Of a stretch of DNA of 64,000 bases, positions 249 to 56,298 are shown piece by piece; positions within the stretch are counted from its first letter, which is position 1, and each line of letters begins with the position of its first letter. The stretch is taken from NCBI RefSeq assembly GCF_050920415.1, contig NZ_CP169309.1; one strand, written 5' to 3'. The notes under the pieces were generated by a model. That model was not told the DNA's origin. It searched no databases and saw only the letters and a program-made list of their open reading frames with translations. This DNA is from Escherichia coli (GTDB lineage: Bacteria; Pseudomonadota; Gammaproteobacteria; Enterobacterales; Enterobacteriaceae). The position numbers and the translations under genes are program-made.

Positions 249-443
249 GCCGGATGTGGCGCACAAAACCAGCGGTTTCAACGGATTGTAGGCCTGATAA
301 GACGCGTCAAGCGTCGCATCAGGCATTTGGGCACGGCTGCCGGATGCGGCGTGAACGCCTTATCCAGCCTACAAAACCAGCATTTTCAACGGACTTGTAG
401 GCCTGATAAGACGCGTCAAGCGTCGCATCCGGCATTTGGGCTC
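249..443. repeat. BIME-type cluster of REP (repetitive extragenic palindromic) elements between convergent ssuB and pepN
   Basis: Seen directly: two near-identical ~70-bp direct copies (approx 262-340 and 371-440) each containing the palindrome GCCTGATAAGACGCGTCAAGCGTCGCATC(A/C)GGC, plus a third REP-like palindrome GCCGGATGCGGCGTGAACGCCTTATCCAGCCTAC at approx 339-372; these match the enterobacterial REP consensus as I recall it. Confidence 0.85.
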
Positions 444-450
444 AAAAGTA

Positions 451-3063
451 TCAAGCCAGTGCTTTAGTTATCTTCTCGTACAGATCTCCAGAGAGATTTT
501 CCAGCCCTTTCAACTGCTCCAGCGCCGCGCGCATTTTCTCCTGACGTTTGGCATCGTAACGCTTCAGGCGAATCAGCGGTTCAATCAGACGTGAAGCCAC
601 CTGCGGGTTACGGCTGTTGAGGTCGGTAAGCATTTCCACCAGGAACTGGTAACCGCTGCCATCTTCGGCATGGAACGCTGCCGGGTTGCTGCCCGCAAAT
701 GCCCCAATCAACGAACGAATGCGGTTCGGGTTGCTCATGGTAAATGAGCGATGCTGCAACAGACCACGCACCGTCTCCAGCACATTTGCCGCCGGACTCG
801 TGGCTTGCAGGATAAACCATTTATCCATCACCAGACCGTCCTGATGCCACTTGTCGTCGTACTCCTGCATCAGCGCGTCACGGCATGGCAGCTGTGCGGC
901 AACCGCCGCAGAAAGCGCCGCCAGCGCATCGGTCATATTGTTTGCTTCATGGTACTGCTTGCTTACCAGCACGTCAGCCAGATGCGTTTCACCAAAAGCG
1001 AGGAAGCGCAGGCAGGCATTACGCAGAGTGCGTTTTGCAATATCTTCATGCTCAACGCGGTACTCGCTCTGATAATTTGCGTTATAAATAGCCAGCAGCT
1101 CATCCGCCAGTTCAGTCGCCAGAGTACGGGTAAGTGCTTCGCGTACTTCGGCAATAGCAATCGGGTCGATGATATCGAACAGTTCCGCCATTTCATTGAC
1201 GGATGGCAGCGTCAGAATTTCTGCCGCCAGTGCCGGGTCAATCTTCTCATCCAGCAGCACCGCGCGGAAAGCATCGGCAACGTGTGCGGGTAAAGACAAT
1301 GGTTGACCTTGCTGATGACGGGCGACGTTCAGTTTGATGTAGGTTGCCAGCAGGCTTTGTGCCGCATCCCAGCGGGAGAAATCATTACGCGCATGACGCA
1401 TCAGGAAGGTCAGTTGCTGATCGCTCCACTTATATTCCAGTTTCACTGGCGCAGAGAATTCACACAGCAGTGCGGGCACCGGCTGGAAGTAGACATTATC
1501 AAAGACAAAGGTCTGTTCCGCCTGGGTGACGTTCAGTACCGAATTCACCGGGTGACCGCCTTTCTGCAACGGGATCACTTTGCCTTCGTTGTCATACAGT
1601 TCAATGGCAAACGGAATATGCAGCGGCTGTTTTTCTGCCTGATCCGGCGTAGCAGGCGTGCGCTGGCTGATGGTCAGGGTGTACTGCTCGGTTTCCGGAT
1701 TATAGTCGTCTTTGACGGTCACAACCGGCGTACCGGACTGGCTGTACCAACGGCGGAAATGGGAGAGATCGACATTTGACGCATCTTCCATCGCCTGAAC
1801 AAAGTCGTCGCAGGTTGCCGCACTGCCATCATGGCGCTCGAAATAGAGCTGCATCCCTTTCTGGAAGTTTTCTTCGCCCAGCAGAGTGTGGATCATGCGA
1901 ATCACTTCCGCGCCCTTCTCATAAACGGTCAGGGTGTAGAAGTTGTTCATTTCAATAACCATATCCGGGCGGATCGGGTGCGCCATCGGGCTGGCGTCTT
2001 CCGCAAACTGCAATCCGCGCATGGTGCGCACGTTGTTGATACGGTTTACTGCGCGGGAACCAAGATCAGAGCTGAATTCCTGATCGCGGAAGACGGTTAA
2101 GCCTTCTTTCAGGCTGAGCTGGAACCAGTCGCGGCAGGTCACACGGTTACCGGTCCAGTTATGGAAATATTCATGACCAATAACGCGCTCAATATCGAGA
2201 TAATCTTTATCGGTCGCGGTATCGATGCGCGCCAGTACATACTTAGAGTTAAAGATGTTAAGACCTTTATTCTCCATTGCGCCCATATTGAAGAAATCCA
2301 CCGCGACTATCATATAGATGTCGAGGTCATACTCCAGACCGAAGCGTTCTTCATCCCACTTCATGGAATTTTTCAGCGAGGTCATCGCCCACGGTGCACG
2401 GTCGAGATTACCACGATCAACATACAGCTCTAGCGCCACTTCGCGACCAGAACGCGTGGTGAAGGTGTCGCGCAGTACATCAAAGTCACCTGCCACCAGC
2501 GCAAACAGGTAGCACGGTTTCGGGAACGGGTCCTGCCATTGTACCCAGTGGCGTCCGTTTTCCAGTTCGCCTTGCGCAACGCGGTTACCGTTGGAAAGCA
2601 GGAACGGGTATTTGGTTTTATCGGCAATAATTTTGGTGGTAAAACGCGCCAGCACGTCCGGGCGGTCGAGATAATACGTAATATGGCGGAAACCTTCGGC
2701 TTCACACTGGGTGCAAAGCGCATCGCCTGACTGATAAAGCCCTTCCAGCGCAGTATTCGCCGCTGGGCTAATTTCATTAACGATCTTGAGCGTAAAACGC
2801 TCCGGCAAATTACTGATGACCAGTGCGCCCTCTTCTTCTTTCCAGGCGGTCCACGGCTCATCATTAATATGAACAGAAACCAGTTTAAGATCTTCGCCAT
2901 CAAGACGAAGCGGAGCATCTGATGCACCATGACGGACAGCCTGGCTGACCGCGGTAACGACCGTCTTTTGCGCGTCCAGGTCAAAGGTCAAGTCAATATC
3001 AGTAATCTGGTAATCCGGCGCACGATAATCGTGACGGTATTTGGCTTGTGGCTGTTGAGTCAT
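451..3063 (-). CDS. pepN: Aminopeptidase N (M1 family zinc metallopeptidase)
   Basis: 870-aa ORF; GAMEN motif and HEYFH...E zinc-binding motif visible in the translation; length and N-terminus MTQQPQAKYRHDY match E. coli PepN as I recall it. Confidence 0.96.
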   Translation of the reverse strand: MTQQPQAKYRHDYRAPDYQITDIDLTFDLDAQKTVVTAVSQAVRHGASDAPLRLDGEDLKLVSVHINDEPWTAWKEEEGALVISNLPERFTLKIVNEISPAANTALEGLYQSGDALCTQCEAEGFRHITYYLDRPDVLARFTTKIIADKTKYPFLLSNGNRVAQGELENGRHWVQWQDPFPKPCYLFALVAGDFDVLRDTFTTRSGREVALELYVDRGNLDRAPWAMTSLKNSMKWDEERFGLEYDLDIYMIVAVDFFNMGAMENKGLNIFNSKYVLARIDTATDKDYLDIERVIGHEYFHNWTGNRVTCRDWFQLSLKEGLTVFRDQEFSSDLGSRAVNRINNVRTMRGLQFAEDASPMAHPIRPDMVIEMNNFYTLTVYEKGAEVIRMIHTLLGEENFQKGMQLYFERHDGSAATCDDFVQAMEDASNVDLSHFRRWYSQSGTPVVTVKDDYNPETEQYTLTISQRTPATPDQAEKQPLHIPFAIELYDNEGKVIPLQKGGHPVNSVLNVTQAEQTFVFDNVYFQPVPALLCEFSAPVKLEYKWSDQQLTFLMRHARNDFSRWDAAQSLLATYIKLNVARHQQGQPLSLPAHVADAFRAVLLDEKIDPALAAEILTLPSVNEMAELFDIIDPIAIAEVREALTRTLATELADELLAIYNANYQSEYRVEHEDIAKRTLRNACLRFLAFGETHLADVLVSKQYHEANNMTDALAALSAAVAAQLPCRDALMQEYDDKWHQDGLVMDKWFILQATSPAANVLETVRGLLQHRSFTMSNPNRIRSLIGAFAGSNPAAFHAEDGSGYQFLVEMLTDLNSRNPQVASRLIEPLIRLKRYDAKRQEKMRAALEQLKGLENLSGDLYEKITKALA

Positions 3064-52553: not shown

Positions 52554-52723
52554 AATGGCTCACTCAAGCTTGCTCACGATTGATTCCAGTAACAAACCGT
52601 ATTGTGTAATTATTTCTATAGCAGGTCGCTATATAGGTTTGTATACATCGAATGATTTGAAAATCAAAGAGATAGGCAGATTTTCACTCGAAAGTAGTAT
52701 TACGTGTAAGTGAGGAGTAATTA

Positions 52724-52737
52724 TTGTTCGGTATCAA
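52724..52737 (-). promoter_or_regulatory. Candidate FNR box of the dmsABC promoter (minus-strand TTGATaccgAACAA)
   Basis: Seen directly: TTGTTcggtATCAA on the plus strand, a near-consensus FNR site (TTGAT-N4-ATCAA) in the serS-dmsA intergenic region; the dms operon is known to be FNR-dependent. The distance to the dmsA ATG (~170 bp) implies a long leader. Confidence 0.45.
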
Positions 52738-52745
52738 AGGGAGAC

Positions 52746-52771
52746 AAAAAAAGCGCCCGAAGGCGCTTTTT
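52746..52771 (-). terminator. Candidate rho-independent terminator downstream of serS (symmetric, possibly bidirectional)
   Basis: Seen directly: AAAAAAAGCGCCCGAAGGCGCTTTTTAG, a GC stem flanked by A- and T-runs, just after the serS stop. Confidence 0.7.
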
Positions 52772-52791
52772 AGATTCAGAAAAATTGGGTA

Positions 52792-56252: not shown

Positions 56253-56287
56253 GCCGGATGCAACGCTACCTCGCCTTATCCGGCCTA
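56253..56287. repeat. REP-like palindromic element in the ftsK-lolA intergenic region
   Basis: Seen directly: GCCGGATGCAACGCTACCTCGCCTTATCCGGCCTAC resembles the REP consensus (GCCGGATG...CTTATCCGGCCTAC). Confidence 0.65.
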
Positions 56288-56298
56288 CGATGCATTAA

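Follow-up and report, generated by a model that had tools for sequence, protein, structure and literature searches.

What kind of DNA fills the gap between the convergent genes ssuB and pepN in some strains of Escherichia coli, and what, if anything, does it do for the two transcripts that run toward each other across it? We have considered this question for a window of 64,000 nucleotides of E. coli contig NZ_CP169309.1 (assembly GCF_050920415.1), the positions of which are used throughout. Our answer, which we hold with considerable confidence, is that positions 246-450 are a BIME that fills the whole of the convergent ssuB-pepN spacer, would place REP stem-loops at the 3' ends of both mRNAs, serves in other strains as a target of IS1397, and is probably a site of gyrase action. 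The kind of element is already known, REP/BIME clusters having been described since the 1980s, and this is a typical member. A literature search for papers that pair pepN or ssuB with a BIME, with IS1397, or with a REP found none, a result that says little about the wider literature.

The spacer and its repeats

The window opens inside ssuB, the ATPase gene of the aliphatic sulfonate ABC transporter, of which the last 80 codons are present on the plus strand (3-245). Its identity follows from a profile match of the SsuB C terminus (NF008420, E 1.4e-39) and from the annotation of matching genomes; the encoded protein ends in ...SEQPIRRHG, and the TAA stop codon occupies 243-245. On the other side, pepN encodes aminopeptidase N (870 amino acids; TIGR02414, 1257 bits) on the minus strand, from 451 to 3063, with its TGA stop at 453-451. 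The spacer between the two stop codons is thus 205 bp long (246-450), and the element within it begins 3 nt past the ssuB stop and has its final edge 16 nt from the stop of pepN. Two plus-strand open reading frames in a mechanically produced list (254-400 and 327-467) were rejected as artefacts of the repeat.

The element is built of alternating REPs, in the order truncated Y, Z2, Y, and Z2, which form two tandem units of ∼109 bp (period 108-109 bp). Read along the plus strand, the ssuB stop is followed by a Y head arm, a linker, Z2, a head-to-head linker, Y, a second copy of the first linker, Z2, and a 16-nt flank that leads to the pepN stop. The first of these components is a Y-type REP of which only the head arm is present (GCCGGATGTGGCG, 249-261, plus strand), recognized by the repeat finder, by its head motif, and by the alignment of the two units; relative to the full Y at 339-372, whole-unit alignment finds one C in place of the 19 nt that make up the loop and 3' arm, such that this copy is shorter by 18 nt. 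Copy 1 of the tail-to-tail linker (ACAAAACCAGCGGTTTCAACGGATT, 263-287, plus strand), delimited by the sequence itself, the repeat finder, and linker alignment, leads to Z2 REP no. 1 (288-325, plus strand). Beyond it, a head-to-head linker (TTTGGGCACGGCT, 326-338) that is kin to the Y-Z2 linker of the Rfam naRNA4 model joins this REP to the full Y (339-372), which lies on the minus strand and in which A365 adds one stem mismatch to those of the consensus. Copy 2 of the tail-to-tail linker (AAAACCAGCATTTTCAACGGACTT, 373-396, plus strand), where an extra C394 disrupts the TTCAA-N4-TTG spacing, and Z2 REP no. 2 (397-434, plus strand), with a GTCA loop at 414-417, complete the second unit. The original prediction, made from the sequence alone, had counted three REP palindromes at this locus; three full ones are indeed found, but the truncated Y at 249-261 had been missed.

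The two long direct repeats that it had placed at 262-340 and 371-440 are real, although the first copy ends at 332, the two intervals are of unequal length (79 versus 70 nt), and an indel of 1 nt had escaped notice. The repeat finder and global alignment put the copies at 263-332 (70 nt) and 371-441 (71 nt), both on the plus strand. Between them, the global alignment contains three substitutions (GG at 274-275 versus AT at 382-383, and A321 versus C430) and a single 1-nt indel, the extra C394, such that the differences that had been named, GCGG/GCAT and A/C in the palindrome arm, are both correct. The individual pairs returned by the repeat finder were 286-332 with 395-441 (47 nt, 98%), 263-285 with 371-393 (23 nt, 91%), and 248-261 with 338-351 (14 nt, 93%). 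The longest exact direct repeat within positions 1-900 measures 35 nt, the maximum in 1000 Markov resamples being 14, which confirms that the repeats are far beyond chance. Judged from these alignments, the internal duplication of ∼70 bp is the second BIME unit, that is, the better-kept part of a two-unit tandem array.

REP family and BIME class

Assignment of the ssuB-pepN element to the REP/BIME family is supported by several features of its sequence. REPs are characterized by a conserved GTAG tetranucleotide 5' of the foot of the stem (PMC3333891), and such feet are present at 288-291 and 397-400 on the plus strand and, for the minus-strand Y, as CTAC at 369-372. A search of the window matched the Y consensus at 339-372 (one mismatch) and the Z2 consensus at 288-325 (no mismatch) and 397-434 (one mismatch), and neither consensus was matched in 100 shuffles; the head motif was also found at 249-261, and the foot motif at 288-301, 359-372, and 397-410. 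Of the consensus strings used, the part that comprises the Y foot, the L linker, and the Z1 head was checked on genomes, and real K-12 Y and Z2 REPs were read. In addition, the Rfam model RF02564 (naRNA4/CssrE) matches 291-369 on the minus strand, across the head-to-head Y-Z2 pair, with 82.2 bits against a gathering threshold of 59.5. The model derives from REP325 and essentially describes a head-to-head pair of one Y and one Z2 REP.

The element is extragenic, lying wholly between two stop codons, and its kind is present in high copy number: when 5426 complete E. coli genomes were searched with a query of 501 nt that includes it, 5425 returned matches, at a median of at least 35 related places in each, a number that is due to the REPs within the query. 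The original prediction had named a lack of similarity in a genome-wide repeat search as the outcome that would speak against the REP family, and the abundance of related places, together with the agreement with consensus to within one mismatch, is the reverse of that outcome. Its reading of the ssuB-pepN spacer as a composite REP/BIME element is likewise borne out by the Y and Z2 matches, the GTAG feet, the bulged hairpins described below, the genome-wide copies, and the naRNA4 match. Elsewhere in the 64 kb there is just one other REP, a single Y-type unit at 56253-56288.

The class to which the BIME belongs is a more subtle matter. BIME-1 elements combine Y with Z1 in single copy, around a long L linker that often contains an IHF site; BIME-2 elements are tandem repeats of Y and Z2, separated by a short S linker and flanked by s, l, or r, although the linkers vary; and atypical BIMEs are chimeric, mixing motifs of both classes (y, z1, z2, L, S, s, l, r) within a multicopy element (PMC3333891). 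Like the BIME-2 elements of K-12, of which those at sucB-sucC and REP325 (yjdM-yjdN) are examples, the element here consists of inverted, alternating Y and Z2 REPs in tandem copies and is extragenic, at 3' ends; its head-to-head linker is, moreover, related to that of REP325 in the Rfam naRNA4 alignment. It differs from BIME-2 in having only two units, the first with a truncated Y, and in its tail-to-tail linker. In the sucB-sucC element, the one canonical BIME-2 with which it was compared, this linker is a 12-nt S (GGGACCACCAAT) and the head-to-head linkers are of 6 nt, whereas here the tail-to-tail linker is of 23-24 nt, bears no resemblance to S, and aligns with L. With BIME-1, or RIP/RIB, elements, the locus shares polarity (Y ...CCTAC, linker, GTAG...) as well as the opening 18 nt of the linker (AAAACC.GCA..TTCAA). 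However, both partners are Z2 (38 nt, GACGC...GCGTC) instead of the shorter Z1 of L024, two tandem units stand in place of a single copy, and some 10 nt of L are missing, including the native 3' half of its IHF site.

A Y-L-Z1 consensus, of which one real copy was read, is found at ≥80% coverage in every genome (median of at least 38 places), and the linker of the present locus reaches ≥80% coverage in 2221 genomes, at two places in each, which correspond to the two copies at the locus. The closest paralogue found is the K-12 ettA-nadS BIME, which comprises Y, a linker beginning AAAACCAGCAATTTCAAT, and Z2, and in which the head-to-head linkers are similar (TTGAGCACCGAA versus TTTGGGCACGGC), while the tail-to-tail linkers of the two elements can be aligned; it differs in lying at another locus and in a linker of 31 nt, longer by 7 nt. 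With Y and Z2 REPs, an L-like linker, and a REP325-like head-to-head linker repeated over two units, the element at 246-450 fits most readily among the "atypical" BIMEs: its REP types and tandem layout resemble those of BIME-2, and its linker is derived from L.

The resemblance to L bears directly on the claim that this element binds IHF, which the sequence does not support. It is the long L linker of BIME-1 that carries IHF sites (PMC3333891); the linker here is a shortened relative of L, and the exact IHF consensus (WATCAANNNNTTR) does not occur within 246-450. The nearest approach to it is in linker copy 1, where TTTCAACGGATTG (276-288), extending one base into the GTAG of the Z2 REP, is a single mismatch away, the mismatch falling where the canonical L motif, too, differs from the consensus; in linker copy 2, the spacing of the corresponding site is broken by the extra C. 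Were the element an IHF-binding RIP/RIB of the BIME-1 type, the 18 nt shared with L and this one near-match would be accounted for, but the Z2 partner, the tandem arrangement, the loss of the 3' half-site, and the disrupted second copy would not, and we regard such a function as highly improbable.

Predicted RNA structure and the 3' ends of the transcripts

Each full REP, folded alone, is predicted to form a bulged hairpin on either strand, with free energies of -15.1 to -21.8 kcal/mol and the internal mismatches expected of REPs. The hairpin of Z2 no. 1 is predicted at -21.8 kcal/mol and that of Z2 no. 2 at -17.1 kcal/mol, the weaker value accompanying C430, which gives the second Z2 a Y-like head (GCCGGATG). 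In the long Y:Z2 hairpin, by contrast, the same C430 is predicted to improve the pairing, with G-C in place of a G.A mismatch. Folding of the complete spacer is much more stable than that of its shuffles (z scores of -7.2 and -6.8 for the two strands), and the folding of the convergent 3' regions that had been proposed as a check thus yielded strong predicted structure on both. The single-sequence minimum free energy fold joins Y and Z2 no. 2 into one long hairpin on both strands, whereas in the consensus fold of seven lineages the partner of Y is Z2 no. 1; because Y has a different Z2 partner in the two predictions, several foldings are likely to compete within the spacer. In a REPIN, two inverted REPs pair across a short spacer into one long hairpin, and it is on the identity of such a pair that the two predictions disagree here. 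Compensatory base changes were found at none of 60 pairs across the seven lineages, the divergence of which is too low for a real test.

The first full stem lies 16 nt from the pepN stop and 42 nt from that of ssuB, near which there is only the weak half-Y. On the pepN strand, the flank that separates the BIME from the pepN stop (435-450) is predicted to fold into a 7-bp hairpin (GGCUUGA/UUGAGCC) that includes the stop codon. Translation is reportedly decreased by a REP that lies no more than about 15 nt from a stop codon, a finding attributed to Liang, Rudd and Deutscher in 2015; a literature search for a citable source for this distance rule found none. In positions 1-1000 of the window, there is no site with the pattern of an intrinsic terminator (a GC-rich hairpin followed by a T/U run), nor is there a promoter-like site.

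Where the element lies, how it is predicted to fold, and what has been published on other REPs make a role as a 3'-end stem-loop for both convergent mRNAs likely. Both transcripts would run into the element, and their 3' ends would fold into REP stem-loops of -15 to -22 kcal/mol each, or into the longer Y:Z2 hairpins. By analogy with other REPs, these structures would hinder 3'→5' exonucleases and would also stop transcription, although leakily and in part through Rho. REP325 is both a terminator and a stabilizer, the presence of REPs between convergent genes is associated with increased expression of the two, and 78 REPs are found in bidirectional terminators (bioRxiv 10.64898/2026.03.23.713779).

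The RF02564 match, which lies above the gathering score on the minus strand, might be taken to point elsewhere, namely to a nucleoid-associated noncoding RNA resembling naRNA4 that would condense the chromosome together with HU, naRNA4 itself having been described from REP325 (PMC4550694). The model would, however, in effect recognize any head-to-head Y-Z2 pair, and no promoter-like site from which such an RNA could start is present within 1-1000. Furthermore, a 2026 preprint reports that REP325/naRNA4 gives no measurable nucleoid compaction and is a local 3'-UTR element (bioRxiv 10.64898/2026.03.23.713779). Of all of the readings considered here, we find this one the hardest to credit.

Alleles of the ssuB-pepN junction

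The extent to which E. coli makes use of the BIME at this position was assessed across 5,426 complete genomes, a biased sequenced collection, the counts from which are not population frequencies. The BIME allele, defined as ≥80% of the 501-nt query, was present in 2062 genomes (38.0%), and the locus-specific linker in 2221 (40.9%). The remainder is largely accounted for by an allele with a simple hairpin at the junction, which was found in 3166 genomes (58.3%). Over positions 100-600, the window is 100% identical to strain MFDS1022581, and identity of ≥99% was seen in only 10 records.

K-12 MG1655 is without the BIME at this junction and has instead a 42-bp spacer with a GC-rich hairpin (CCGAATGGCGGC-GCTATT-GCCGCCATTCGG, then TTATTTAT) of 13 bp, with a T-run, that scores as an intrinsic terminator; the K-12-type segment can be described as ACTCGCCTGAGAAAACAGGGGTAA plus this hairpin. 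In O157:H7, the palindrome at the junction is longer and perfect. The bidirectional terminator of K-12 and O157:H7 resembles the BIME in occupying the same spot between the same two stop codons and in forming a stable stem-loop on both strands. It differs in being a single perfect hairpin of 12-19 bp with flanking A/T runs, 42 bp in all, and in not being repeated elsewhere (median of 1 place per genome, highest 2). Where it is present, the BIME would do the job that a classical bidirectional terminator hairpin does in the alternative allele.

The two alleles differ also in the gene that precedes them. The last seven codons of ssuB encode the end of ...SEQPIRRHG in the window and that of ...SETRLRKQG in K-12, the QPIRRHG tail going with the BIME and TRLRKQG with the terminator, and the breakpoints between the alleles fall near window positions 222 and 444. 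Only ∼11-13 of the last 24 nt of ssuB are identical between the two, as counted from the sequences, a difference too great for simple point mutation to be the origin of the K-12 end.

It had been proposed that the copy number of the internal duplication commonly differs between strains. Within complete E. coli genomes this is not so, the two-unit form being nearly invariant, but between Escherichia species the number of units does differ. The BIME alleles sampled span 499-502 bp, or 490 bp where a 12-nt deletion has removed part of the last Z2 (Nissle 1917 and SCU-176), and strain S1-SRL-01-C has an extra partial Y. As the linker occupies 5332 places in total, no more than a few dozen genomes can have a number of linker copies other than two, and variation in copy number appears to be rare within the species. 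A set of 35 genomes at ≥80% coverage that seemed to hold three-unit alleles was rejected, the signal being two overlapping BLAST pieces with a span in the record of 290 bp, which corresponds to two units. The comparison of the intergenic region across E. coli that the original prediction had called for thus returned a near-constant two units, together with the hairpin in 3166 of the 5426 genomes. From the sequences, the main polymorphism of the locus is replacement of the entire BIME by a terminator hairpin, not a change in the number of units.

For other species, a degenerate pattern for the PepN C terminus was applied to contigs from one genome per species and returned 13 loci. A two-unit BIME that includes the truncated Y is present in E. 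whittamii, in Escherichia sp. E1V33, and in strain E69, whereas strain SCPM-O-B-8794 has three units with the same Y truncation, and E. albertii has one decayed unit, with a full-length Y, beside an ssuB remnant of ∼100 bp. The E. albertii form would arise from a two-unit array if the half-Y were to recombine with the full Y. In Citrobacter amalonaticus, the spacer is different, but EQPIRRHG is encoded, in one frame, at the 3' end of ssuB. Because the BIME occurs in other Escherichia species, the allele that combines it with the QPIRRHG tail is probably ancestral in the genus, the K-12-type hairpin allele having probably replaced it later.

It is conceivable that two regulatory alleles have long coexisted at the junction and are possibly maintained there, with the ancestral BIME and QPIRRHG on the one hand and the derived terminator and TRLRKQG on the other, at a ratio of ∼41:58. 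The alleles may then set different expression of the sulfonate-utilisation operon and pepN, or different read-through. We offer this as a speculation that is, at present, quite unlikely to be correct.

IS1397 insertion and decay of the element

IS1397 is known to insert specifically into the REPs of E. coli (PMC1525189), and the expectation that the ssuB-pepN element would be a target for insertion sequences is realized. Annotated copies of IS1397 lie between ssuB and pepN in strains 118UI and S1-SRL-01-C, inside the BIME, which thereby resembles other palindromic units targeted by this IS; the window itself differs in having none. The junction sequences place the insertions in the loop of the pepN-proximal Z2 REP (GACGC GTCA AGCGTC). 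The target duplications are of 4 bp (GTCA) and 3 bp (TCA), and the orientations in 118UI and S1-SRL-01-C are opposite, so at least two independent insertions into the same REP loop are indicated by the sequences. Junction-specific queries found 149 complete genomes with the IS in one orientation and 45 with it in the other. In all, about 194 genomes have IS1397 in the element, corresponding to ∼3.6% of the total and ∼9% of BIME carriers.

Substitutions and deletions in the element mostly break its stems, as illustrated by R1, by SCU-176 and Nissle 1917, both of which have the 12-nt deletion, and by the decayed copy of E. albertii. Such broken stems, along with the lack of compensatory changes, the 58% of genomes that are without the element, and the ∼3.6% that carry a 1.4-kb IS within it, fit weak or no selection on the element. 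These are the observations from which one could argue that it is selfish or neutral DNA, spread by TnpA-REP and retained through inertia, with no locus-specific host function and with any terminator or stabilizer effect being incidental. Outright replacement by a 42-bp hairpin in over half of the genomes, interruption by IS1397, partial deletion of stems in several lineages, and the absence of covariation (albeit at low divergence) are all in keeping with this, as is the ability of TnpA-REP to cleave and recombine BIMEs in vitro (PMC3333891). It is less easily reconciled with the retention of the same arrangement, down to the truncated Y, in several Escherichia species, or with the location of the element just where convergent genes need a terminator, in a region (1-1000) that has no other terminator-like site. 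We consider the argument a serious one, although on balance we doubt its conclusion. It and our preferred reading, a BIME that furnishes both mRNAs with 3' stem-loops, are not mutually exclusive, and multiplication of the units in the latter case, too, may have proceeded via TnpA-REP/RAYT or by unequal recombination.

A possible role at the DNA level

In K-12, gyrase cleaves a subset of BIME-2 elements, mainly at Y REPs and independently of transcription (PMC6379681). The Y REP of the ssuB-pepN BIME would probably be such a site, as Y/Z2 BIMEs are, and this forms part of the reading that we prefer. A stronger proposition is that the element acts principally on DNA, as a strong site of gyrase binding and cleavage that relieves positive supercoiling between the convergent units. 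The tandem Y and Z2 REPs are as in BIME-2, the class that is enriched for gyrase cleavage (PMC6379681), and a location between convergent genes is one at which positive supercoils accumulate. Nevertheless, just a subset of BIME-2 elements is cleaved (PMC6379681), and this one has a single intact Y REP, with the additional stem mismatch at A365, and non-canonical linkers. The absence of the element from 58% of genomes also counts against such a role, which we judge to be unlikely.

Concluding remarks

In itself, the BIME between ssuB and pepN matters little. K-12, the source of the cited gyrase map and of the REP expression data, is without it, and it therefore lies outside the K-12 REP catalogue. 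Through it, repeated independent insertion of IS1397 into one REP loop is documented in natural isolates. With the same two convergent genes separated by a BIME in some strains and by an intrinsic terminator in others, the locus also allows a clean natural comparison, one that could be used to test the proposal that REPs are both terminators and stabilizers. If the two-allele polymorphism outlined above proves to be true, the ssuB-pepN junction would be a natural experiment in which a REP cluster is set against an ordinary terminator.

Allelic variation at the ssuB-pepN junction

Sequence comparison identifies a two-allele polymorphism at the junction of the convergent ssuB and pepN genes, in which positions 222-450 of the window correspond to positions 422-488 of the K-12 locus (L001). 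The BIME, together with the last seven codons of ssuB (encoding QPIRRHG), is replaced in K-12, in O157:H7, and in 58% of the 5426 complete E. coli genomes by a 42-bp spacer that carries a bidirectional terminator hairpin, and the SsuB tail then reads TRLRKQG. At its right edge, the BIME allele also forms a 7-bp hairpin (GGCUUGA/UUGAGCC; window 441-457, minus strand) that takes in the stop codon of pepN and is absent from the K-12 allele.

The Z2 REP nearer to pepN carries IS1397 in its loop both in strain S1-SRL-01-C (L006, 2864-4293) and in a second IS1397-bearing locus (L005, 2820-4251). The two IS1397 copies lie in opposite orientations, with target duplications of 3 bp (TCA) and 4 bp (GTCA), respectively. 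Junction queries placed IS1397 at this REP loop in 149 complete genomes for the L005 type and 45 for the L006 type.

The locus in other species

Downstream of pepN in Escherichia albertii NBRC 107761 (L011), the 3' end of ssuB is reduced to ~100 bp and adjoins a decayed, one-unit BIME. Because the sequence beyond this remnant resembles that adjoining pepN in Salmonella arizonae, most of the ssu operon appears, from sequence, to have been deleted from this genome. At the 3' end of ssuB in Citrobacter amalonaticus AUH_CA_2023_1 (L019), a run of seven G residues shifts the frame just ahead of a would-be EQPIRRHG*, reflecting either a homopolymer error in the assembly or a real frameshift.

Related elements

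Apart from the ssuB-pepN cluster, a single REP was detected in the 64-kb window, a solitary Y-type element (GCCGGATGCAACGCTACCTCGCCTTATCCGGCCTAC) at 56253-56288 on the plus strand. The enterobacterial small RNA STnc130 is matched on the same strand at 52644-52778 (Rfam RF02084; score 138.8 bits, threshold 55).

In strain S1-SRL-01-C, an additional, partial hybrid REP (TTGCCGGATGCGCGTAAACGCCTTATCAGGAAGTTGGGCACGGC; L006, 2720-2770) separates the first Z2 from the Y REP, giving a BIME of unusual length that is rarely seen. Among the paralogues found, the one closest to the ssuB-pepN element is the BIME between ettA and nadS of K-12 JM83 (L007, 580-700), which consists of a Y REP, a 31-nt L-like linker (AAAACCAGCAATTTCAATACGTTGTAAAACT), and a Z2 REP, its head-to-head linker being similar to that of the ssuB-pepN element. 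This suggests that the two belong to a sub-family of atypical BIMEs.
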